A DNA stretch of 64,000 nucleotides from Escherichia coli (GCF_016026235.1 NZ_CP065613.1), one strand, 5' to 3'. Numbered from the stretch's first letter, positions 16,084-55,830 are shown. Notes: generated by a model not told the origin, from the letters alone. Made by a program: numbers and translations.

Positions 16084-19000
16084 ATGTCACGTTATAAAAC
16101 AGGTCATAAACAACCACGATTTCGTTATTCAGTTCTGGCCCGCTGCGTGGCGTGGGCAAATATCTCTGTTCAGGTTCTTTTTCCACTCGCTGTCACCTTT
16201 ACCCCAGTAATGGCGGCACGTGCGCAGCATGCGGTTCAGCCACGGTTGAGCATGGGAAATACCATGGTAACTGCTGATAATAATGTGGAGAAAAATGTCG
16301 CGTCGTTTGCCGCAAATGCCGGGACATTTTTAAGCAGTCAGCCAGATAGCGATGCGACACGTAATTTTATTACCGGAATGGCCACCGCTAAAGCTAACCA
16401 GGAAATACAGGAGTGGCTCGGGAAATATGGTACAGCGCGCGTCAAACTGAATGTCGATAAAGATTTCTCGCTGAAGGATTCTTCGCTGGAAATGCTTTAT
16501 CCGATTTATGATACGCCGACAAATATGTTGTTCACTCAGGGGGCAATACATCGTACAGACGATCGTACTCAGTCAAATATTGGTTTTGGCTGGCGTCATT
16601 TTTCAGGAAATGACTGGATGGCGGGGGTGAACACCTTTATCGACCATGATTTATCCCGTAGTCATACCCGCATTGGTGTTGGTGCGGAATACTGGCGCGA
16701 TTATCTGAAACTGAGCGCCAATGGTTATATTCGGGCTTCTGGCTGGAAAAAATCGCCGGATATTGAGGATTATCAGGAACGCCCGGCGAATGGTTGGGAT
16801 ATCCGCGCAGAGGGCTATTTACCTGCCTGGCCGCAGCTTGGCGCAAGCCTGATGTATGAACAGTATTATGGCGATGAAGTCGGGCTGTTTGGTAAAGATA
16901 AGCGCCAGAAAGACCCGCATGCGATTTCTGCCGAGGTGACCTATACGCCAGTGCCTCTTCTGACACTGAGCGCTGGGCATAAGCAGGGCAAGAGCGGTGA
17001 GAATGACACTCGCTTTGGCCTGGAAGTTAACTACCGAATTGGCGAACCTTTGGCGAAACAACTCGATACGGATAGCATTCGCGAGCGTCGGGTACTGGCA
17101 GGCAGCCGCTATGACCTGGTTGAGCGTAATAACAACATCGTTCTTGAGTACCGCAAATCTGAAGTGATCCGTATTGCTCTGCCTGAGCGTATTGAAGGTA
17201 AGGGCGGTCAGACACTTTCCCTCGGGCTTGTGGTCAGCAAAGCAACTCACGGACTGAAAAATGTGCAGTGGGAAGCGCCGTCATTACTGGCTGAAGGTGG
17301 CAAAATTACCGGTCAGGGTAGTCAGTGGCAAGTAACGCTCCCGGCTTATCGTCCAGGCAAAGACAATTATTATGCGATTTCTGCGGTTGCCTACGATAAC
17401 AAAGGCAATACCTCAAAACGCGTGCAGACAGAGGTGGTCATTACCGGAGCTGGTATGAGCGCCGATCGCACGGCGTTAACGCTTGACGGTCAGAGCCGTA
17501 TTCAAATGCTTGCTAACGGTAATGAGCAAAAACCGCTGGTGCTGTCTCTGCGCGACGCCGAGGGCCAGCCAGTCACGGGCATGAAAGATCAGATCAAGAC
17601 TGAACTAACTTTCAAACCGGCTGGAAATATTGTGACTCGTTCCCTGAAGGCCACTAAATCACAGGCAAAGCCAACACTGGGTGAGTTCACCGAAACTGAA
17701 GCAGGGGTGTATCAGTCTGTCTTTACTACCGGAACGCAGTCAGGTGAGGCAACGATTACTGTTAGCGTTGATGGCATGAGCAAAACCGTCACTGCAGAAC
17801 TGCGGGCCACGATGATGGATGTGGCAAACTCCACCCTGAGCGCTAACGAGCCGTCAGGTGACGTGGTTGCTGATGGTCAGCAAGCCTATACGTTGACGTT
17901 GACTGCGGTGGACTCCGAGGGTAATCCGGTGACGGGAGAAGCCAGCCGCTTGCGATTTGTTCCGCAAGACACTAATGGTGTAACCGTTGGTGCCATTTCG
18001 GAAATAAAACCAGGCGTTTACAGCGCCACGGTTTCTTCGACCCGTGCCGGAAACGTTGTTGTGCGTGCTTTCAGCGAGCAGTATCAGCTGGGCACATTAC
18101 AACAAACGCTGAAGTTTGTTGCCGGGCCGCTTGATGCAGCACATTCGTCCATCACCCTGAATCCTGATAAACCGGTGGTTGGGGGTACAGTTACGGCAAT
18201 CTGGACGGTAAAAGATGCCTATGACAACCCTGTGACCAGCCTCACGCCGGAAGCGCCGTCATTAGCGGGTGCCGCTGCTGAAGGTTCTACGGCATCGGGC
18301 TGGACAAATAATGGTGATGGGACGTGGACTGCGCAGATTACTCTCGGCTCTACGGCGGGTGAATTAGAAGTTATGCCGAAGCTAAATGGACAGAATGCGG
18401 CAGCAAATGCGGCAAAAGTAACCGTGGTGGCTGATGCGTTATCTTCAAACCAGTCGAAAGTCTCTGTCGCAGAAGACCACGTAAAAGCCGGCGAAAGCAC
18501 AACCGTGACGCTGGTGGCGAAAGATGCGCATGGCAACGCTATCAGTGGTCTTGCGTTGTCGGCAAGTTTGACGGGGACCGCCTCTGAAGGGGCGACCGTT
18601 TCCAGTTGGACCGAAAAAGGTGACGGTTCCTATGTTGCTACGTTGACTACAGGCGGAAAGACGGGCGAGCTTCGCGTCATGCCGCTCTTCAACGGCCAGC
18701 CAGCAGCCACCGAAGCCGCGCAGTTGACGGTCATCGCTGGGGAGATGTCATCAGCGAACTCTACGCTTGTTGCGGACAATAAGGCTCCGACCGTCAAAAC
18801 GACGACGGAACTCACCTTCACCGTGAAGGATGCGTACGGGAACCCGGTCACCGGGCTGAAGCCAGATGCACCAGTGTTTAGCGGTGCCGCCAGCACGGGG
18901 AGTGAGCGTCCTTCAGCAGGAAACTGGACAGAGAAAGGTAATGGGGTCTACGTGGCGACCTTAACGCTGGGATCTGCCGCGGGTCAGTTGTCTGTGATGC

Positions 19001-20340
19001 CGCGAGTGAACGGCCAAAATGCCGTTGCTCAGCCACTGGTGCTGAACGTTGCAGGTGACGCATCTAAGGCTGAGATTCGTGATATGACAGTGAAGGTTAA
19101 TAACCAACTGGCTAATGGACAGTCTGCTAACCAGATAACCCTGACCGTCGTGGACAGCTATGGTAATCCGTTGCAGGGGCAAGAAGTTACGCTGACTCTG
19201 CCGAAAGGTGTGACCAGCAAGACGGGGAATACGGTAACAACCGATGCGGCAGGTAAAGCCGACATTGAGCTGATGTCAACGGTTGCGGGAGAACACAATA
19301 TTTCCGCTTCGGTGAATGGTGCTCAGAAGACGGTCACGGTGAAATTCAAGGCGGATTTCAGTACCGGTCAGGCGACCCTGGAGGTTGATGGCAGCACGCC
19401 AAAAGTGGCAAACGACAATGATGCCTTTACGCTGACGGCAACGGTTAAGGATCAATACGGCAACCTTCTGCCTGGCGCTGTGGTCGTCTTTAATCTGCCT
19501 CGGGGCGTCAAACCGCTTGCAGACGGTAATATCATGGTGAACGCCGACAAGGAGGGTAAAGCGGAACTGAAAGTGGTCTCCGTGACTGCCGGAACGTATG
19601 AGATCACGGCGTCGGCAGGAAATGACCAGCCTTCAAATGCGCAGTCTGTAACGTTTGTGGCCGATAAGACTACGGCGACCATCTCCAGTATTGAGGTGAT
19701 TGGCAACCGTGCAGTGGCGGATGGCAAAACCAAACAGACGTATAAAGTTACGGTGACTGATGCCAATAACAACCTGTTGAAGGATAGCGACGTGACGCTG
19801 ACTGCCAGCTCGGAAAATTTAGTTCTGGATCCTAAAGGGACGGCGAAAACTAATGAGCAAGGACAGGCTGTTTTCACCGGCTCTACCACTATCGCAGCGA
19901 CATATACACTCACGGCGAAAGTGGAACAGGCCAACGGTCAGGTATCGACGAAAACTGCTGAATCTAAATTCGTCGCGGATGATAAAAACGCGGTGCTCGC
20001 CGCATCTCCAGAACGTGTAGATTCTCTGGTGGCGGACGGGAAGACTACTGCAACAATGACGGTTACCCTGATGGCGGGAGTCAATCCCGTAGGAGGAAGT
20101 ATGTGGGTCGACATTGAGGCTCCGGAAGGAGTGACGGAGAAGGATTATCAATTCCTGCCGTCGAAGGCTGACCATTTCTCAGGTGGGAAAATCACGCGTA
20201 CATTTAGTACCAGCAAGCCAGGTGTCTATACGTTCACATTCAACGTACTGACGTATGGCGGGTACGAAATGGCGCCTGTGAAGGTGACAATTAACGCCGT
20301 TGCTGCAGAGACTGAAAATGGCGAGGAGGAGATGCCATAA
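16084..20340 (+). CDS. eaeH: Intimin/invasin-family adhesin EaeH (FdeC), intact, 1418 aa
   Basis: N-terminal inverse-autotransporter beta-barrel region followed by many Big (bacterial Ig-like) repeats; position between ykgM side and ykgA. Confidence 0.85.
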   Translation: MSRYKTGHKQPRFRYSVLARCVAWANISVQVLFPLAVTFTPVMAARAQHAVQPRLSMGNTMVTADNNVEKNVASFAANAGTFLSSQPDSDATRNFITGMATAKANQEIQEWLGKYGTARVKLNVDKDFSLKDSSLEMLYPIYDTPTNMLFTQGAIHRTDDRTQSNIGFGWRHFSGNDWMAGVNTFIDHDLSRSHTRIGVGAEYWRDYLKLSANGYIRASGWKKSPDIEDYQERPANGWDIRAEGYLPAWPQLGASLMYEQYYGDEVGLFGKDKRQKDPHAISAEVTYTPVPLLTLSAGHKQGKSGENDTRFGLEVNYRIGEPLAKQLDTDSIRERRVLAGSRYDLVERNNNIVLEYRKSEVIRIALPERIEGKGGQTLSLGLVVSKATHGLKNVQWEAPSLLAEGGKITGQGSQWQVTLPAYRPGKDNYYAISAVAYDNKGNTSKRVQTEVVITGAGMSADRTALTLDGQSRIQMLANGNEQKPLVLSLRDAEGQPVTGMKDQIKTELTFKPAGNIVTRSLKATKSQAKPTLGEFTETEAGVYQSVFTTGTQSGEATITVSVDGMSKTVTAELRATMMDVANSTLSANEPSGDVVADGQQAYTLTLTAVDSEGNPVTGEASRLRFVPQDTNGVTVGAISEIKPGVYSATVSSTRAGNVVVRAFSEQYQLGTLQQTLKFVAGPLDAAHSSITLNPDKPVVGGTVTAIWTVKDAYDNPVTSLTPEAPSLAGAAAEGSTASGWTNNGDGTWTAQITLGSTAGELEVMPKLNGQNAAANAAKVTVVADALSSNQSKVSVAEDHVKAGESTTVTLVAKDAHGNAISGLALSASLTGTASEGATVSSWTEKGDGSYVATLTTGGKTGELRVMPLFNGQPAATEAAQLTVIAGEMSSANSTLVADNKAPTVKTTTELTFTVKDAYGNPVTGLKPDAPVFSGAASTGSERPSAGNWTEKGNGVYVATLTLGSAAGQLSVMPRVNGQNAVAQPLVLNVAGDASKAEIRDMTVKVNNQLANGQSANQITLTVVDSYGNPLQGQEVTLTLPKGVTSKTGNTVTTDAAGKADIELMSTVAGEHNISASVNGAQKTVTVKFKADFSTGQATLEVDGSTPKVANDNDAFTLTATVKDQYGNLLPGAVVVFNLPRGVKPLADGNIMVNADKEGKAELKVVSVTAGTYEITASAGNDQPSNAQSVTFVADKTTATISSIEVIGNRAVADGKTKQTYKVTVTDANNNLLKDSDVTLTASSENLVLDPKGTAKTNEQGQAVFTGSTTIAATYTLTAKVEQANGQVSTKTAESKFVADDKNAVLAASPERVDSLVADGKTTATMTVTLMAGVNPVGGSMWVDIEAPEGVTEKDYQFLPSKADHFSGGKITRTFSTSKPGVYTFTFNVLTYGGYEMAPVKVTINAVAAETENGEEEMP

Positions 20341-21577: not shown

Positions 21578-22447
21578 GTGGAATTTTCCGTATTAAGTAA
21601 CAATCTGAAAATGCCGATGATGGGATTTGGTGTTTTTCAGGTTACCGATAAAAACGTGTGCAAACAGTCAGTGTTGAACGCTATCCGCACGGGGTATCGA
21701 CTCATCGACACTGCAGCGGTATACGGTAATGAAGATGCTGTCGGTGAAGCCGTTCGTGAAGCCATATCCGAAGGTTTATGTACCCGAGAAGAGTTATTTA
21801 TAACGTCTAAATTGTGGGTGCAGGATATGTTGAATCAGGATACGGCAGCAGCAGGTATTGAAGCATCATTAAAAAAATCGGGACTAGAATACTTCGACCT
21901 CTATTTATTGCATCAGGCTATGCGCGATTATTTCAGTGCGTGGCGTGCACTCGAAGATGCCTATGAAGAGGGCAAATTAAAAGCGATTGGGGTTTCCAAT
22001 TTCTATCCTCATGTTCTGGCGAACTTTTGTGAAACGGTAAGAGTTAAACCGATGGTCAACTAGGTCGAGTTGCATCCCTATTTTGCCCAACCAGAGGCGC
22101 TGGCAACCATGAAGTATTATAACGTGCAGCCTGAAGCATGGGCTCCGTTAGGTGGTGGACGACATAAACCCTTTGAAAATAATCTGCTTCAGAGTATTGC
22201 AGATGCCCATCAAAAATCGATTTTTCAAGTCATTCTGCGTTGGAATATTCAACGGGGAGTGGTCGTTATTCCGAAATCGACACATCAACAGCGTATCGAA
22301 GAAAATTTCGCTATCTGGGATTTCTCACTGACAGAGAAAGAAATGGCACAAATTAGTTCGCTTGATTTGGGTTATGTTGGGGAGTCGGTAAAACATTTTA
22401 ATCCTGAATTTGTTCGTGGTTGTCTTGCTGTAAAAATACATGATTGA
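21578..22447 (+). pseudogene. Aldo-keto reductase interrupted by in-frame amber codon (TAG at 22061..22063)
   Basis: Two ORFs in same frame (21563..22063 and 22070..22447) separated only by TAG; paralog at 14667..15518 has Gln (VNQVEV) where this has stop (VN*VEL); GTG 21578 with GGAGG RBS. Confidence 0.7.
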
Positions 22448-43429: not shown

Positions 43430-44002
43430 TTGTTATTGCATAAAACCGCGCCATGTTTGCATATGGCGCAGGAATCATTGACTCGCTGTAAAAAATTATG
43501 CATATATTATATATGATTGTCATGTCATATCCTGAAATTCCTCTTGTATCACTTCATGATTTTATATTTTATTAATTAACGATTTTATTTTGTATTAGCT
43601 GAATGGATTCAGTCCTATAGGGTTATATATTTATTAATAAGACGATTCTTATATTTGGATACCTAATAAGAGTTACCACTTTTACCGGCTGTATATTAAA
43701 TGTATTTCTCCTGCTTTTGTTTATATTTTGAGTTGATTTGAGTTCCTGGATACATATAATGCGCAGGTATTAGAGACTGGTGGGGAATGTAATGATAAAG
43801 TTAAGAGTGTTAACTTAAAATAAGTTTTCAGTAGTAACTTGCTATTTTATTACCCTCTGAACTACATACTCAGATATGTGGTTGCCAATGCTATGCAAAA
43901 TTTTTGAATTTTTATATGCGATGAACAGTAACCGGAATGGCATTTAATGCGTTGCTGTTTATGCAATCTTGGTTTTATTTGGATGTATTGCTGGAGATTG
44001 TG

Positions 44003-47000
44003 ATGAATAAAATATATCGGCTAAAGTGGAACAGGTCCCGTAACTGTTGGAGCGTCTGCTCGGAGCTGGGGAGCAGAGTAAAAGGAAAAAAGTCCCGGGC
44101 TGTTTTAATTAGCGCGATAAGTTTATATTCATCTCTGGCACTGTCTAAAGATGTTACTGTAAGTGAAGATCACACAGCTGTATTCGGTAAAGATAACCAG
44201 ACTATTGATTACCGTATTTCAGTGACCGACAATGCCAATCTGGTAATCAATGCGACAGATACTTCCCGTCCGCGTCTGACTCTCGCGTCTGGTGGTGGGT
44301 TGGATATTACCGGAGGAAAGGTAACAATCAATGGCCCACTTAACTTTTTGCTGAAAGGTACGGGCTTCCTGAATGTCTCCAATGCTGGCAGCGAGTTATA
44401 TGCTGATGATTTGTATGAGTCAAACTCAGGCATGAGACATGATCAAGGCTATTTTAATGTCTCCAACGGCGGCAAAATTCATGTTAAGGGCACCAGTCGT
44501 CTGACTTATACGCAGGGGAATGTAAGCGGCGAAGGTAGTCAGGTAAATGCCGGGACCTTCTTTATGGGCGTTTACGGCGGATATGGCGGTAATCAGTTCC
44601 TGTCGGTTAATAACGGTGGTGAAGTTAATGCTCGTGAACATATTAGCCTGGGTTATTACGACCAACGTTCTGATACAACATTAGTCGTATCAGATGGAGG
44701 TAAAATATCCGCACCGAAAATTAGTTTAAGCACCAACTCTGAGTTAGCGTTAGGTGCACAGGAAGGAAGTGCTGCGAAGGCTGCAGGGATTATTGATGCC
44801 GAAAAAATTGAGTTTGTGTGGGCAAAGACATCCGATAAGAAAATCACCTTAAACCACACGGATAAAAACGCGACTATTTCCGCGGATATTGTCAGTGGCA
44901 GCGAGGGCCTGGGCTATATCAATGCGCTCAATGGCACGACTTACTTAACCGGTGATAACTCTGCCTTTAGTGGTAAAGTCAAAATTGAGCAAAATGGCGC
45001 TTTAGGGATCACCCAAAATATAGGTACAGCAGAGATCAACAACCGCGGGAAATTACACCTGAAGGCTGACGATAGCATGACCTTTGCCAATAAGATTTCC
45101 GGCAATGGTACAATAAGTATCGACAGTGGGACAGTGGCACTGACCGGCAATAACTATGCATTCAGCGGATATATTGATGTCGCTTCTGGTGCTGTCGCGG
45201 TTATTTCTGAAGACAAGAACATCGGCCGTGCGGACCTGGATGTTGATGGCAAACTGCAAATCAATGCCAATAAAGATTGGGTATTTGATAACGATCTTCA
45301 AGGTAGAGGTATTGTTGAAATAAACATGGGGAATCACGAATTCTCCTTCGATGAGTTTGCTTATACAGACTGGTTCCAGGGTTCACTGGCGTTCCAGAAC
45401 ACGGCATTTAACCTGGAAAAGAATGCTGAGTTTCTGCAGAGAGGCGGGATCACTGCGGGTCAGGGAAGCCAGGTAACAGTGGGTAAGGGCGCTCATTCTA
45501 TTAGCACTCTGGGATTCTCCGGCGGAACGGTTGATTTTGGTGCCCTGGCAGCTGGTGCACAGATGACAGAAGGGACCGTCAACGTTAGTAAAACGCTGGA
45601 TTTGCGCGGCGAGGGTGTGATTCAGGTTTCTGACAGTGACGTTGTAAGCTCAGTATCTCGTGATATTGACTCTGCGTTATCGCTCACTGAAGTCGATGAT
45701 GGTAACAGCACCATTAAGTTGGTTGATGCGCAAGGTGCGGAAGTTCTGGGCGATGCGGGCAATCTGCAATTGCAGGATAAAAATGGGCAAATCCTCTCCA
45801 GCAGCGCCCAACGTGATATTCAGCAGAATGGGCAAAAAGCGGCCGTCGGCACTTACGACTATCGTCTGACGAGTGGGGTAAACAATGACGGTCTGTATAT
45901 CGGTTACGGCCTGACCCAGCTTGATTTACACGCTACCGACAGCGATGCTCTGGTGCTGAGTTCTAACGGTAAAAGCGAGAATGCCGCCGATCTCAGCGCA
46001 AAGATTACCGGCAGTGGTGACCTGGCATTCAGCAGCCAGAAGGGTCAGACCGTATCGCTTTCTAACAAAGACAACGACTATACCGGTGTTACCGATCTGC
46101 GCAGTGGGACGCTTTTGTTGAATAACGATAACGTGTTGGGTAATACCCATGAACTGCGTCTGGCGGCAGAGACTGAACTGGATATGAATGGTCACAGCCA
46201 GACCGTGGGCACGCTCAATGGCAGCGCCGATTCACTGCTGAGCTTAAATGGCGGCAGTCTGACGGTTACCAACGGGGGCACTTCAACCGGTTCGTTAACG
46301 GGGAGCGGAGAGCTGAATATTCAGGGCGGCACGCTGGACATCGCGGGCGATAACAGCAACCTGACAGCGAATGTGAACATTGCTAATTCGGCTAATGTCC
46401 TGGTAAGTCATGCGCAGGGATTGGGTAGCGCAAACGTTGAGAACAACGGTACCCTGGCGTTGAATAATAGCGCTGAAAAAAGAGCGGCTGCGTCTGTGAA
46501 TTACACCCTGGGCGGCAATCTGACCAACAACGGTACGCTGATGACCGGAATGTCAGGACAGCAAGCTGGCAATGTGTTAGTGGTGAAGGGGAACTACCAC
46601 GGTAATAACGGTCAACTAGTAATGAATACGGTACTGAATGGCGATGACTCAGTAACCGATAAATTGGTTGTCGAGGGCGATACTAGCGGCACGACTGCCG
46701 TTACGGTGAATAACGCTGGCGGTACAGGTGCGAAAACCCTTAACGGTATCGAACTTATCCATGTAGACGGTAAGTCTGAGGGCGAATTTGTTCAGGCTGG
46801 TCGTATCGTTGCGGGGGCGTATGACTACACTCTCGCGCGTGGACAAGGGGCAAATAGTGGTAACTGGTATCTGACCAGCGGCAGTGATTCTCCTGAACTG
46901 CAGCCGGAGCCAGACCCGATGCCGAATCCGGAGCCAAACCCGAATCCAGAGCCGAACCCTAACCCGACACCTACGCCGGGTCCGGATCTGAATGTGGATA

Positions 47001-47986
47001 ATGACTTGCGACCGGAGGCGAGTAGCTACATTGCGAACCTTGCAGCAGCGAATACCATATTCACCACGCGTCTGCATGAGCGTCTGGGTAATACGTACTA
47101 TACCGACATGGTGACGGGTGAGCAGAAACAAACCACTATGTGGATGCGCCATGAAGGTGGTCATAATAAATGGCGTGATGGCAGCGGCCAGCTGAAAACC
47201 CAAAGCAATCGCTATGTTCTGCAACTGGGAGGCGATGTCGCGCAGTGGAGCCAAAACGGCAGCGACAGCTGGCATGTTGGGGTCATGGCGGGATATGGCA
47301 ACAGCGACAGCAAAACCATTTCCTCGCGAACCGGTTATCGTGCAAAAGCGAGTGTGAACGGATATAGCACCGGCCTCTATGCCACCTGGTATGCCGATGA
47401 CGAGTCGCGTAATGGCGCGTATCTCGACAGTTGGGCGCAGTACAGCTGGTTTGATAACACAGTGAAAGGGGATGACTTACAAAGTGAATCCTATAAATCA
47501 AAAGGATTTACCGCTTCACTGGAAGCTGGATACAAACACAAATTAGCTGAATTTAATGGCAGCCAGGGAACGCGTAATGAATGGTATGTTCAGCCGCAAG
47601 CACAGGTTACCTGGATGGGAGTCAAAGCCGATAAGCACCGCGAAAGCAACGGAACCCTCGTTCATAGCAACGGTGATGGCAATGTTCAAACCCGACTTGG
47701 CGTAAAAACCTGGCTGAAGAGCCACCATAAAATGGATGACGGTAAATCCCGCGAGTTCCAGCCGTTTGTAGAAGTGAACTGGCTGCATAACAGTAAGGAT
47801 TTCAGCACCAGTATGGATGGCGTGTCCGTCACTCAGGATGGAGCCCGAAATATTGCTGAGATAAAAACCGGGGTGGAAGGACAGCTAAATGCCAACCTGA
47901 ATGTCTGGGGGAATGTGGGCGTTCAGGTTGCCGATAGGGGATATAATGACACCTCTGCAATGGTTGGCATTAAGTGGCAATTCTGA
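44003..47986 (+). CDS. Large AIDA-I-type autotransporter adhesin, EhaA-like (1327 aa from MNKIYRLKWN start)
   Basis: Extended signal peptide MNKIYRLKWNRSRNCWSVCSELG; repetitive passenger; Pro-rich linker PEPDPMPNPEPNPNPEPNPNPTPTPGP (about 46900..46985); C-terminal beta-barrel ending ...GIKWQF. Confidence 0.85.
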   Translation: MNKIYRLKWNRSRNCWSVCSELGSRVKGKKSRAVLISAISLYSSLALSKDVTVSEDHTAVFGKDNQTIDYRISVTDNANLVINATDTSRPRLTLASGGGLDITGGKVTINGPLNFLLKGTGFLNVSNAGSELYADDLYESNSGMRHDQGYFNVSNGGKIHVKGTSRLTYTQGNVSGEGSQVNAGTFFMGVYGGYGGNQFLSVNNGGEVNAREHISLGYYDQRSDTTLVVSDGGKISAPKISLSTNSELALGAQEGSAAKAAGIIDAEKIEFVWAKTSDKKITLNHTDKNATISADIVSGSEGLGYINALNGTTYLTGDNSAFSGKVKIEQNGALGITQNIGTAEINNRGKLHLKADDSMTFANKISGNGTISIDSGTVALTGNNYAFSGYIDVASGAVAVISEDKNIGRADLDVDGKLQINANKDWVFDNDLQGRGIVEINMGNHEFSFDEFAYTDWFQGSLAFQNTAFNLEKNAEFLQRGGITAGQGSQVTVGKGAHSISTLGFSGGTVDFGALAAGAQMTEGTVNVSKTLDLRGEGVIQVSDSDVVSSVSRDIDSALSLTEVDDGNSTIKLVDAQGAEVLGDAGNLQLQDKNGQILSSSAQRDIQQNGQKAAVGTYDYRLTSGVNNDGLYIGYGLTQLDLHATDSDALVLSSNGKSENAADLSAKITGSGDLAFSSQKGQTVSLSNKDNDYTGVTDLRSGTLLLNNDNVLGNTHELRLAAETELDMNGHSQTVGTLNGSADSLLSLNGGSLTVTNGGTSTGSLTGSGELNIQGGTLDIAGDNSNLTANVNIANSANVLVSHAQGLGSANVENNGTLALNNSAEKRAAASVNYTLGGNLTNNGTLMTGMSGQQAGNVLVVKGNYHGNNGQLVMNTVLNGDDSVTDKLVVEGDTSGTTAVTVNNAGGTGAKTLNGIELIHVDGKSEGEFVQAGRIVAGAYDYTLARGQGANSGNWYLTSGSDSPELQPEPDPMPNPEPNPNPEPNPNPTPTPGPDLNVDNDLRPEASSYIANLAAANTIFTTRLHERLGNTYYTDMVTGEQKQTTMWMRHEGGHNKWRDGSGQLKTQSNRYVLQLGGDVAQWSQNGSDSWHVGVMAGYGNSDSKTISSRTGYRAKASVNGYSTGLYATWYADDESRNGAYLDSWAQYSWFDNTVKGDDLQSESYKSKGFTASLEAGYKHKLAEFNGSQGTRNEWYVQPQAQVTWMGVKADKHRESNGTLVHSNGDGNVQTRLGVKTWLKSHHKMDDGKSREFQPFVEVNWLHNSKDFSTSMDGVSVTQDGARNIAEIKTGVEGQLNANLNVWGNVGVQVADRGYNDTSAMVGIKWQF

Positions 47987-48127
47987 TCTGAATAATGAGT
48001 AAAAGGAGAGAGAGCCGAACGGGAGATAATTCGGCTCTCTGTGTCATTTTCTTGCAGCCAGCTTTATCAGTCAGAGTGAAGACTCGCAGATTTAGCTGGC
48101 GCACAAGATTTAATCAAGGTGTGTTCA

Positions 48128-49216
48128 ATGGCTTCGCATGATTTGAGTGTTTTTTTGGAAGAGTTCGGGGCAACGGTGAATTTGACGTTGCCTGGTATCG
48201 TGTCCGAAAAAGAACGGCTTTTACTCAAGCTGCTAATGGAGGGAATGTCGGTTACAGAAATCTCACAGTACAGAAATCGCAGTGCAAAGACAATTTCACA
48301 TCAAAAGAAGCAGCTGTATGAAAAACTAGGCATCCAGAGTGATATTACCTTCTGGCGGGATATCTTTTTTCAATATCATCCGCAAGTCATCAGTGGCACG
48401 GGAAATAAAAATAATTTTTATATCCCTGATAACCGTTGTCACCATATCGTCACGCCTGAAGCCATCAGTCTGGCGTTGGAAAACCACGAATTCAAACCGT
48501 GGATCCAACCGGTTTTCTGCGCGCAGACTGGGGTACTGACGGGCTGTGAGGTACTTGTCCGCTGGGAACATCCACAAACGGGAATTATCCCACCGGATCA
48601 GTTTATTCCTCTGGCGGAGTCATCCGGTCTTATTGTCATAATGACCCGCCAACTGATGAAACAGACTGCGGATATTCTGATGCCGGTAAAACATTTGCTG
48701 CCGGACAATTTCCATATTGGCATCAACGTCTCGGCGGGTTGTTTTTTGGCAGCGGGATTTGAAAAAGAGTGTCTGAACCTGGTTAAGAAATTAGGTAACG
48801 ATAAAATCAAGCTGGTTCTCGAGCTAACGGAACGTAACCCTATTCCGGTAACGCCAGAAGCCAGAGCGATATTTGACAGCCTTCATCAGCACAACATTAC
48901 CTTTGCGCTGGATGACTTTGGTACGGGTTATGCGACCTATCGTTACTTGCAGGCGTTCCCGGTCGATTTTATTAAGATCGATAAGTCATTTGTGCAAATG
49001 GCGAGTGTCGACGAAATCTCCGGTCATATTGTGGACAATATTGTCGAACTAGCGCGTAAGCCTGGTCTGAGTATCGTGGCGGAAGGGGTAGAAACCCAGG
49101 AGCAGGCGGATTTAATGATCGGTAAAGGCGTTCACTTTTTGCAGGGCTATTTGTACTCTCCGCCAGTACCGGGTAATAAATTTATCTCTGAATGGGTAAT
49201 GAAAGCAGGTGGTTGA
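48128..49216 (+). CDS. pdeL: PdeL (YahA) c-di-GMP phosphodiesterase with N-terminal LuxR-type HTH and C-terminal EAL domain
   Basis: HTH (LLLKLLMEGMSVTEISQYRNRSAKTISHQKK) plus EAL-domain motifs; synteny after betT region. Confidence 0.9.
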   Translation: MASHDLSVFLEEFGATVNLTLPGIVSEKERLLLKLLMEGMSVTEISQYRNRSAKTISHQKKQLYEKLGIQSDITFWRDIFFQYHPQVISGTGNKNNFYIPDNRCHHIVTPEAISLALENHEFKPWIQPVFCAQTGVLTGCEVLVRWEHPQTGIIPPDQFIPLAESSGLIVIMTRQLMKQTADILMPVKHLLPDNFHIGINVSAGCFLAAGFEKECLNLVKKLGNDKIKLVLELTERNPIPVTPEARAIFDSLHQHNITFALDDFGTGYATYRYLQAFPVDFIKIDKSFVQMASVDEISGHIVDNIVELARKPGLSIVAEGVETQEQADLMIGKGVHFLQGYLYSPPVPGNKFISEWVMKAGG

Positions 49217-55501: not shown

Positions 55502-55514
55502 CCTACATGTTCAT

Positions 55515-55785
55515 GCCGGATGCGGCGTGAACGCCTTATCCGGCCTACGAATGGCGCGAGAATCTGTAGGCCTGATAAGCGTAGCGCATCAGGCATTTGT
55601 CACCATTGCCGGATGCGGCGTGAACGCCTTATCCGGCCTACGAGTGGCGCAAGAATTTGTAGGCCTGATAAGCGTAGCGCATCAGGCATTTGTCACCATT
55701 GCCGGATGCGGCGTGAACGCCTTATCCGGCCTACGAATGGCACGAGAATTTGTAGGCCTGATAAGCGTAGCGTATCAGGCAATTT
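55515..55785. repeat. REP/BIME cluster: three tandem ~93-bp units of palindromic REP sequences
   Basis: Unit GCCGGATGCGGCGTGAACGCCTTATCCGGCCTACGAATGG...GCCTGATAAGCGTAGCGCATCAGGCATTTGTCACCATT starting at 55515, 55608, 55701. Confidence 0.85.
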
Positions 55786-55830
55786 GGCGTTGGTCATAAC
55801 CCCATCACCCTCTGTAGCGGACATAACAAC

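Follow-up and report, generated by a model that had tools for sequence, protein, structure and literature searches.

The autotransporter gene between betT and pdeL in the window (the whole 64,000-nt stretch of Escherichia coli DNA analysed here, from NZ_CP065613.1) is, on sequence grounds, ehaA itself: a gene already known, and not merely the "EhaA-like" one of the original prediction. We regard the following account as very probably correct: ehaA is the single gene of O-island 15, it belongs to an old haplotype of the region upstream of pdeL, and it likely has a promoter of the pdeL type. The K-12 pdeL control module, comprising a Cra box, a core promoter and a PdeL-box palindrome, is kept upstream of ehaA in every ehaA haplotype whose sequence we examined. 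Its conservation in front of this gene appears to be undescribed so far; it predicts control of the adhesin by Cra and PdeL, together with possible co-transcription of ehaA and pdeL.

The identification follows from three facts, and no observation speaks against it. The protein has 97% gapless identity (1288 of 1327 residues, 0 gaps) to EhaA of O157:H7 (z0402/ECs0362; Wells et al. 2008, Environ Microbiol 10:589), which has the same 1327 aa; the gene occupies the same betT-pdeL site, which is the canonical one for ehaA and is known as O-island 15 or S-loop 24; and the variable block has the size published for O-island 15, 4643 bp (PMC8565820). An AIDA-I-type autotransporter related to EhaA had thus been correctly foreseen. 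The intact frame opens on the + strand with the ATG at 44003 (MNKIYRLKWN...), which has a GGAG Shine-Dalgarno sequence 8 nt 5' of it, and closes with the stop codon ending at 47986; the expected 1327-aa protein with an extended signal peptide is therefore real. RefSeq places the start at the same ATG in a 99.9%-identical locus, and the ORF called by program from 43937 merely begins at an in-frame upstream ATG. The interval first delimited for the feature, ending at 48118, stops 9 nt before the annotated start codon of pdeL (48128). Among 5426 complete E. coli genomes, RefSeq gives the name "autotransporter adhesin EhaA" to the gene at this site in 1385, and the locus is thus neither core nor invariant.

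Over 4689 bp, including the same upstream and downstream spacers, the window and the O157 locus share 97% DNA identity. The differences between the two proteins are concentrated in the tip of the passenger: the first 260 residues hold 34 of the 39 substitutions and the C-terminal 497 aa only 5, and dS is 0.35 in the tip against 0.018 in the C-terminal third. These values indicate that the window carries a distinct tip allele. The signal-peptidase region also differs (...SSLALSKD in the window, ...SSLVFADD in O157).

Table 1. Mapped features of the ehaA locus (window coordinates)
Feature	Position	Strand	Basis or remark
Hairpin just 3' of betT stop (betT terminator)	43446..43471	+	terminator-like site; last K-12-shared sequence before the block
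Variable block equivalent to O-island 15	43470..48112	+	junctions against K-12; 4643 bp
Cra box palindrome GCTGAATGGATTCAGT	43598..43613	.	first 15 bases identical in both haplotypes
PdeL-box-like palindrome AATAAG-N6-CTTATA	43636..43653	.	38 nt after Cra-box start
Sigma-70 promoter-like TTGATT-16-TATAAT, predicted ehaA promoter	43733..43760	+	-35 43733-43738, -10 43755-43760
ehaA coding sequence, 1327 aa plus stop	44003..47986	+	ORF, RefSeq annotation, O157:H7 alignment
ESPR, aa 1-39	44003..44119	+	Pfam PF13018, E 5.6e-10
Autochaperone AC_1, aa 839-944	46517..46834	+	Pfam PF18883, E 3.8e-28
Pro-rich PEPNPNP linker, aa 961-995	46883..46987	+	sequence; tandem repeat 46922-46967
Translocation unit, alpha-helical linker plus beta-barrel, aa 1001-1327	47003..47983	+	4MEE match, E 2.8e-91
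Stem-loop 3' of ehaA stop, terminator-like, weak T tract	48009..48040	+	-20.6 kcal/mol; z-score only -1.2
pdeL (LuxR-type HTH plus EAL c-di-GMP phosphodiesterase, transcription factor)	48128..49216	+	
pdeL 5' 311 nt, same haplotype block as ehaA	48128..48438	+	59 fixed differences between haplotypes

Both its sequence and its modelled structure mark EhaA as an intact classical (type Va, AIDA-I-type) autotransporter adhesin. The autotransporter barrel domain (PF03797, aa 1046-1305, E 2.3e-46) covers profile positions 1-254 of 255, and the C-terminus (...KWQF) ends in an aromatic residue. An AlphaFold2 (AF2) model of the translocator (pLDDT 91.2) has a helix followed by long antiparallel strands, and its top Foldseek match is the AIDA-I transport unit 4MEE (TM 0.96, rmsd 1.8 A, 37% identity). 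The predicted C-terminal beta-barrel thus passed a structural test, and the Pro-rich linker was likewise found as described. The autochaperone region matches that of IcsA (3ML3, E 1.4e-28) as well as the IcsA passenger 5KE1, with homology to the latter extending over aa 734-966. A beta-helical passenger, as expected of a classical type Va autotransporter, is possible. The passenger is rich in G, N, S and T, but to call it long and repetitive was an overstatement: BLASTP of the protein against itself returned no internal repeat at E<1e-3, AIDA-like 19-residue repeats being undetectable in the passenger by this means, and DNA repeats within the passenger are weak. The sole tandem repeat at the DNA level (46922-46967) lies inside the Pro-rich linker.

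EhaA has been placed with the "Group 8" adhesins (MisL, ShdA, IcsA, YfaL/EhaC) in a review (PMC9289746), and it shares with these and with AIDA-I of E. coli 2787 an ESPR, an autochaperone, a Pro-rich linker and a barrel homologous to 4MEE over its whole length. It nonetheless scores far under the curated NCBIfam cut-offs for AIDA-I, MisL, ShdA and YfaL, and so is an orthologue of none of them. By analogy with the family, the ESPR-bearing signal peptide would direct Sec export, and the C-terminal ~330 residues would enter the outer membrane via BAM to form a beta-barrel plugged by the alpha-helical linker; the passenger would be threaded outward, its folding beginning at the autochaperone. Surface display, autoaggregation, biofilm formation and epithelial adhesion are attributed to the O157 protein (Wells 2008 and Yin 2009, cited in PMC9289746 and PMC8565820). 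Given the 97% identity, the surface-anchored passenger encoded in the window probably also mediates cell-cell aggregation, biofilm formation and epithelial adhesion.

The borders of the block bear on its history. Homology with K-12 on the betT side runs to 43469, beyond which the O-island 15-type block stands in place of about 830 bp of K-12-type betT-pdeL spacer. E. whittamii lacks betT at this place and yet has the same 40 nt at the betT-terminator hairpin. The difference between the two forms continues into pdeL, where all 59 fixed differences fall within nt 4-311 and 40 of them stay fixed across species. Within E. coli, dS between the forms is 0.63-0.69 at this 5' end, an estimate resting on about 130 codons, against 0.013-0.155 further downstream. 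The forms are also discrete: the pdeL 5' end is of the A type (at least 99% identical) in 1386 genomes and of the B type (80-90%) in 3753, with only 11 in between, and the K-12-type spacer occurs in 3651 genomes against 1385 for ehaA. Haplotype A thus consists of a control region, ehaA and the A-type pdeL 5' end; haplotype B consists of the 874-bp K-12-type spacer and the B-type pdeL 5' end.

Both haplotypes extend beyond E. coli. In E. whittamii an intact ehaA adjoins pdeL at species-level divergence (dS 0.35), only remnants of ehaA persist at the same place in E. albertii, and the B type is present in two other Escherichia species. In E. albertii, the 5' part of pdeL resembles haplotype A (dS 0.36-0.54) more than the 3' part does (dS above 1). 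What the other Escherichia lack between ykgG and pdeL is ykgH, PAI-X and betABIT; ehaA and pdeL are not the missing part. Judged from these comparisons, the region has two haplotypes, both old and discrete and each found in more than one Escherichia species; ehaA is part of one of them and is no recent lineage-specific insertion. Exchange of haplotypes between species is a possible alternative to ancestral polymorphism. Further, the two forms share control elements, which points to a polymorphism of the replacement kind and not to a plain insertion. Of the earlier statement that the gene is inserted between betT and pdeL, then, the position stands and the insertion is not supported, the site being canonical, its borders free of mobility signatures and its two haplotypes old.

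The shared control elements lie in the spacer upstream of ehaA, which, as first noted, is AT-rich and about 570 bp long (43430-44002, 573 bp, 31.4% GC against 48.9% for the window). In K-12, the pdeL promoter is bound by Cra and PdeL, is transcribed in a c-di-GMP-dependent manner and is repressed by H-NS, findings that concern K-12 only (Reinders et al., bioRxiv 10.1101/2021.10.01.462762). The window has an identical Cra box: GCTGAATGGATTCAG matches exactly at 43598-43612, and the box is the sequence of the K-12 pdeL-promoter Cra-box/CDB EMSA oligo and of the Cra-box scramble mutant. Its first 15 bases do not vary among the four species in which this region could be compared; at position 16, E. 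coli and E. whittamii have T, and E1V33 and SCPM-O-B-8794 have C. The window also has the AT-rich context and an AATAAG-N6-CTTATW palindrome, which in the K-12 CIB reads AATAAG-N6-CTTATT. Its offset is equal in the window, O157, THO-010 and E. whittamii, and a pattern of the AATAAG-N6-CTTATA type arose in only 0.2% of spacer shuffles.

The core promoter is likewise homologous (TTGATN-16-TATAAT followed by GCGC) and is kept in all loci, with 155-158 nt between Cra box and -10. The promoter scan overall gave no enrichment over shuffles. The K-12 counterpart of the predicted ehaA promoter, TTGATC-16-TATAAT (K-12 22011-22038), is located at the end of the pdeL-promoter fragment that recruits RNAP. 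In the window the predicted promoter lies about 243 nt 5' of the ehaA ATG. The module precedes ehaA in the window and pdeL in K-12, and the remaining spacer cannot be aligned. The PdeL sites, too, are arranged differently. K-12 has a distal CIB palindrome, about 197 nt upstream of the Cra box as deduced from published oligos, and a proximal CDB half-site (CTTAAT); haplotype A lacks the half-site by the Cra box and has one full PdeL-type palindrome, at +38 from the Cra-box start. Taken together, these likenesses suggest that transcription of ehaA starts at an orthologue of the K-12 pdeL promoter, which Cra, PdeL and H-NS control.

This raises the question of how pdeL is transcribed in haplotype A. 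It begins 141 nt 3' of ehaA, behind a hairpin; across E. coli, E. whittamii and E. albertii its stem is conserved and its loop variable. This hairpin could end most transcripts, and pdeL may rely at least partly on read-through. We tentatively propose that, in O-island 15 strains, the Cra/PdeL-dependent bistable promoter known from K-12 pdeL is really the ehaA promoter, that ehaA and pdeL form one unit under Cra, PdeL and H-NS, that K-12 carries the adhesin-less version, and that the whole is an old trans-species polymorphism and not an "O157 island"; we put the chances of this full proposal at somewhat below even. If true, roughly one quarter of E. coli would switch an adhesin together with a c-di-GMP phosphodiesterase through a bistable promoter sensitive to c-di-GMP.

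A competing reading, which we consider improbable, holds that ehaA is silent or decaying as in E. albertii, where only fragments of it are kept, that the adjacency of Cra box and promoter is a relic, and that pdeL has its own, unrecognised promoter. The AT-rich spacer does resemble H-NS-silenced DNA, its K-12 counterpart being H-NS repressed; about 100 of the complete E. coli genomes surveyed have a partial ehaA alone; and the conserved hairpin stands between the two genes. However, the ehaA ORF is intact and under purifying selection (dN/dS 0.12-0.24 over 1327 codons), and the + strand has no sigma-70-like site in 47987-48127 or in the 3' part of ehaA. Moreover, the haplotypes agree fully or almost fully in the Cra box, in the -35/-10 elements and in the PdeL-like palindrome, amid spacer that is no longer alignable, which marks these sites as being under selection in either context. 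Deletion of ehaA from O157 also reduced adherence in pig ileal loops, according to PMC8565820.

The original prediction had taken the neighbourhood for an adhesin-acquisition hotspot of this lineage. That ehaA came in horizontally as an island, as one element of a local hotspot gathering adhesin genes, now seems very unlikely to us. It is true that roughly two thirds of the complete E. coli genomes, K-12 and B2 strains included, lack ehaA, that it is listed as an O-island/S-loop and described in the literature as "selectively acquired", that its upstream spacer has only 31% GC, that fdeC and hyxB/upaB, two further adhesin genes, are found within 28 kb, and that the adjoining PAI-X is a true variable island containing IS elements. 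Yet the GC content of ehaA (49.6%) is near that of the window, and the same 4643-bp block sits at the same site in 1385 genomes, which span many lineages and serotypes, 748 of them also carrying hyxB in the colinear order hyxB-bet-ehaA-pdeL. Further, the linked pdeL 5' end has diverged as much as between species, or more, and it is for the bet-ykgH segment that presence differs from other Escherichia species. Nor does the locus show the hallmarks of a recently acquired mobile genomic island: there are no integrase or transposase/IS ORFs between betT and pdeL, no flanking direct or inverted repeats at the ehaA borders and no tRNA within 28000-52000 of the window, and sister species have the gene.

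The neighbouring adhesin genes are nevertheless as first described. The 1418-aa ORF at 16084-20340 is an intact FdeC/EaeH, and the second autotransporter, at 30427-32724 on the - strand, is an intact HyxB, alias UpaB. Like EhaA, these are type V surface adhesins in the same 30-kb neighbourhood, but their genes are unrelated to ehaA, they have no physical or evolutionary linkage to the ehaA-pdeL block, and the three have separate known histories. UpaB is part of PAI-X (fimX/ipbA-hyxRAB), an island restricted to E. coli and found in about half of its genomes; FdeC is nearly universal and is broken by IS3 in K-12.

The gene between betT and pdeL is the already known ehaA, or O-island 15 (OI-15), a gene recognised from 2001-2008 onward that serves as a standard marker for the virulence typing of STEC. 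Its product is identical to the EhaA of O157:H7 strain SS17 at 1288 of 1327 positions, with no gaps, and it occupies the same betT-pdeL site. The original prediction of an "EhaA-like" protein thus had the relationship right, but the protein is EhaA itself. Full-length matches to 43430-48118 occur in 1385 of 5426 complete E. coli genomes (megablast; 95-99.9% identity), and every one of them is annotated as "autotransporter adhesin EhaA" and lies between betT and pdeL. Homology to K-12 ends 40 nt past the betT stop codon, at a terminator hairpin, and returns roughly 15 nt upstream of the pdeL ATG. The variable block so delimited has exactly the published size of OI-15, which holds "a single ORF, ehaA (z0402)" (PMC8565820) and corresponds to S-loop 24/ECs0362 of Sakai (PMC2323221). 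The O157 protein helps bacteria to aggregate, to form biofilms and to adhere to bovine terminal-rectum cells, and deletion of its gene lowers adherence in pig ileal loops (PMC9289746, PMC8565820).

A mechanical reading of the ORF starts at 43937, 22 codons ahead of the ATG at 44003. We prefer the latter because GGAG lies 8 nt upstream of it, because it is the RefSeq start in a 99.9%-identical genome, and because the ESPR begins there. The predicted 1327-residue autotransporter with its ESPR, proline-rich linker and C-terminal barrel is real, as is the AT-rich region ahead of it: this 573-bp spacer has 31.4% GC, versus 49.6% in ehaA and 48.9% in the window. Rfam (E<=1) gave no match within 43300-48300. 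The passenger, rich in G, N, S and T, shows no internal repeats in a self-BLAST of the protein, and the description "long repetitive passenger" is therefore too strong.

The translocator, on which the original prediction had staked its own refutation, is intact. Residues 1001-1327 match the crystallised AIDA-I transport unit (4MEE) end to end (E 2.8e-91), through the C-terminal ...KWQF. AlphaFold on the C-terminal 393 residues reached a pLDDT of only 32 from the single sequence; with an alignment of 73 sequences from representative homologues, it returned a helix that leads into long antiparallel strands (pLDDT 91.2, pTM 0.86). The best match of this model in the PDB is again 4MEE (E 1.4e-29, TM 0.96 on the target, rmsd 1.8 A); the barrels of Hbp, EspP, BrkA, EstA and NalP rank next. 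The dN/dS of ehaA, 0.12-0.24, indicates purifying selection. The gene in the window is intact and very probably functional. The tip of the passenger (aa 46-260; 44138-44780) holds 34 of the 39 substitutions relative to O157 EhaA. Both dS (0.35) and dN (0.062) are raised over aa 1-250; the C-terminal third has a dS of 0.018. This pattern suggests recombination of tip alleles over simple positive selection.

Features of the ehaA locus and its surroundings (window coordinates unless residues or another locus are named)
Feature	Position	Strand	Remarks
fdeC/eaeH	16084-20340		intact; 1418 aa, 93.5% identical to THO-010 protein
hyxB = upaB	30427-32724		intact
Spacer upstream of ehaA	43430-44002
Variable block	43470-48112		4643 bp
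Cra-box palindrome	43598-43613		16 nt, GCTGAATGGATTCAGT; first island
PdeL-box-like palindrome	43636-43653		AATAAG-N6-CTTATA; 38 nt past Cra-box start
Sigma-70-like site	43733-43760		tattttNagTTGATNtg...CATATAATGCGC; TTGATT-16-TATAAT; second island
ehaA CDS	44003-47986	+	1327-codon ORF, start MNKIYRLKWN
ESPR	aa 1-39		Pfam
Type-1 autochaperone	aa 839-944		Pfam
Pro-rich linker	aa 961-995		sole DNA-level tandem repeat in ehaA
Autotransporter barrel, complete	aa 1046-1305		Pfam, profile positions 1-254 of 255
Hairpin	48009-48040		stem conserved, loop variable between species; poor T tract after
Comparison loci lacking ykgH-(PAI-X)-betABIT	L005 1-5900; L006 1-10000; L008 6000-10000

The original prediction held that ehaA had been inserted. 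The borders carry no signature of mobility: there is no tRNA and no integrase or transposase ORF at them, and a repeat search found no repeats flanking them. The locus is indeed neither core nor invariant, since a K-12-type spacer of 874 bp takes the place of ehaA in 3651 genomes. No remnant of ehaA is detectable in the K-12 spacer (blastn, word size 7, E<1), so K-12 itself does not tell deletion from insertion. The difference extends into pdeL. Over nt 1-400 of this gene, ehaA-positive and ehaA-negative E. coli are 82-84% identical, whereas nt 401-1089 of the window copy are 99-100% identical to K-12; the 59 fixed differences all fall inside nt 4-311. We refer to the arrangement in the window, with control region, ehaA and its form of the pdeL 5' end, as haplotype A, and to the K-12-type spacer with the other pdeL 5' end as haplotype B. 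The pdeL 5' end is bimodal in the population (A-type at >=99% identity in 1386 genomes, B-type at 80-90% in 3753, intermediate in 11), and its linkage with ehaA is therefore near-complete.

In O157:H7 strain PV15-279 (NZ_AP018488.1), the A-type probe matched over its last 35 nt only and the annotation uses the K-12-type PdeL name; this genome may represent a rare recombinant or a haplotype switch within O157. E. coli ehaA-pdeL also occurs, at 98-100% identity, on a contig of a "Collinsella sp." MAG, and "Stappia sp. BW2" has a 385-bp contig with 99% identity to pdeL; both are probably E. coli contamination of the assemblies.

Both haplotypes recur in other members of the genus, in which one genome per species was scanned with PdeL and then compared by local BLAST. 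In E. whittamii, an A-type pdeL directly follows ehaA (91% amino-acid identity). In E. albertii, the A-type pdeL lies behind an A-type promoter region, pieces of ehaA (aa 351-399, 1039-1116 and 1214-1327) and an A-type downstream spacer. Escherichia sp. E1V33 and a genome titled E. coli SCPM-O-B-8794 have a B-type spacer (72-76% identical to that of K-12) and a B-type pdeL. Within nt 4-311 of pdeL, 40 differences split all A from all B sequences across species. In estimates from ~130 codons, A and B sequences within E. coli have a dS of 0.63-0.69 in the pdeL 5' segment and 0.013-0.155 downstream; E. coli differs from the other non-albertii species by a dS of 0.2-0.5. The window ehaA has a dS of 0.35 to the E. 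whittamii copy, a species-level divergence that argues against recent transfer. Further, in E. whittamii, E1V33 and SCPM-O-B-8794, ykgEFG directly joins the spacer upstream of pdeL, with or without ehaA, and the ykgH-(PAI-X)-betABIT segment (compare 29336-43429 of the window) is absent; PAI-X denotes the fimX/ipbA-hyxRAB island. E. whittamii, though without betABIT, retains the 40 nt that trail the E. coli betT stop codon.

An exchange of haplotypes between species is a possible alternative to their joint descent. In the pdeL of E. albertii, dS exceeds 1 over the 3' part but is 0.36-0.54 over the 5' part, and this oddity, along with the small number of codons, leaves room for such exchange. 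Taken together, these results indicate that the adjacency of ehaA and pdeL is old in the genus and that the E. coli population holds two old haplotypes at this locus. "Island" is thus a misnomer for a two-state replacement polymorphism that is older than E. coli and reaches 311 nt into pdeL.

Besides this linkage with the pdeL 5' end, the non-obvious by-product of the analysis is a promoter module for Cra and PdeL that the two haplotypes share. Aligning the K-12 spacer globally (MAFFT) to the one upstream of ehaA gave a forced, meaningless result, and the useful comparisons came from local BLAST and motif searches alone. By local BLAST, the otherwise unalignable A and B spacers have two colinear islands in common. 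The first is a palindrome whose bases 1-15 are invariant across all A and B loci, in all species with sequence for this region; at position 16, E1V33 and SCPM-O-B-8794 have C and the others T. The second, a sigma-70-like site ~243 nt upstream of the ehaA ATG, is conserved equally and lies at a constant 155-158 nt from the palindrome. In K-12, the palindrome is the Cra box of EMSA, scrambled in the Cra-box mutant, and the fragment for Cra/PdeL-dependent recruitment of RNA polymerase runs from this box to CATATAATGCGCCTTTGCTC (Reinders et al., bioRxiv 10.1101/2021.10.01.462762, oligo table); we deduced the position of the K-12 promoter from this supplementary table. That promoter is co-activated by Cra and PdeL and silenced by H-NS (bioRxiv 10.1101/2021.10.01.462762).

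A PdeL-box-like palindrome is found at +38 from the Cra box in every haplotype A locus, with one spacer change in E. whittamii, and shuffling the 573-bp spacer yields a pattern of this type in only 0.2% of cases. All haplotype B loci have a palindrome ~196 nt upstream of the Cra box; the position of the distal palindrome of K-12, CIB, was deduced from oligonucleotide ends and the stated flanks of 10 and 33 bp. The small ORF yahV, confined to the K-12-type spacer, terminates within the Cra box (21803-21888 of the K-12 comparison locus, where yahV ends at 21877 and the box spans 21873-21888).

The control module of K-12 pdeL, defined by experiment, therefore stands upstream of ehaA in ehaA-positive strains, whereas it stands upstream of pdeL in K-12. 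Its conservation while the AT-rich DNA around it is otherwise scrambled speaks for a function at this site, and we infer that it would control ehaA in these strains. Our literature search, which had incomplete coverage and is no proof of novelty, found no link of ehaA with pdeL, Cra or c-di-GMP.

In haplotype A, pdeL starts 141 nt past ehaA, and a promoter scan found no promoter-like site in the spacer between them. The hairpin in this spacer is unexceptional in energy (z -1.2 versus shuffles); it is the retention of its stem while the loop varies that supports a terminator-like role. Partial termination at the hairpin with read-through into pdeL is plausible. The window form of PdeL (5' end of the gene at 48128-48438) departs from that of K-12 over residues 1-24 and over the linker (aa 84-104). 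The HTH core (aa 25-83) is near-invariant between haplotypes, with E38Q and Y64F only, and both forms should therefore recognise the same box. We rejected adaptive change of the DNA-binding helix, given this near-invariance and the mostly synonymous divergence. RefSeq names the K-12 form PdeL and the ehaA-linked form merely "EAL domain-containing protein".

The finding of ehaA as such is routine annotation, and FdeC and UpaB/PAI-X have likewise been described. To our knowledge, the PdeL "digital switch" has been studied exclusively in K-12, which has the haplotype without the adhesin, and the regulation of ehaA is essentially uncharacterised. In EHEC/STEC and many commensals, the Cra box and promoter of K-12 pdeL precede an adhesin gene. 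If this link is functional, central-carbon flux (through Cra) and c-di-GMP state would be tied to EhaA-mediated aggregation and gut adherence, a simple and cheaply testable account of ehaA control. Pan-genome pipelines that score the presence of ehaA alone miss the linked pdeL allele.

The original prediction also saw three adhesin genes bracketing bet and a hotspot of adhesin acquisition in this lineage. From annotated near-identical genomes and family scans, the gene order is fdeC/eaeH, rclCBA-rclR, ykgEFG, ykgH, hyxB, hyxA, hyxR, ipbA/fimX, betABI, betT, ehaA, pdeL, and yahB onward. The three genes are all present, the second autotransporter (hyxB/upaB) is intact, and so is eaeH, as predicted, but each is known already and has a separate history. 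FdeC occurs in nearly every E. coli (PMC8281228), and K-12 fdeC is a pseudogene only through the IS3 that truncates it; hyxB-hyxA-hyxR-fimX is PAI-X, with hyxB equal to upaB, and was found in 24/50 genomes (PMC3789825). The hyxB-bet-ehaA-pdeL order is colinear in 748 complete genomes, O55:H7 among them, and is therefore no peculiarity of the window lineage. With ehaA-pdeL old in the genus as well, a lineage-specific hotspot is unsupported, and the evolutionary interpretation first placed on this locus was largely wrong.

The regulators of PAI-X are inactivated in the window strain, and hyxA and hyxB/upaB remain intact. A 1331-bp IS2 (33972-35302) splits hyxR into parts encoding aa 169-264 (33684-33971) and aa 1-170 (35302-35811). 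The ipbA/fimX gene (35873-36432) gives two overlapping matches whose reading frames differ, as a frameshift would produce; the 99.9%-identical copy in FDAARGOS_943 is frameshifted according to RefSeq. That genome is itself 99.9% identical to the window, and further IS insertions destroy its hyxB. A REP/BIME-like tandem repeat (93 nt x 2.9 copies) lies at 55514-55786, in the yahG-yahI interval, and FDAARGOS_943 is 187 nt longer there, which suggests two extra copies.
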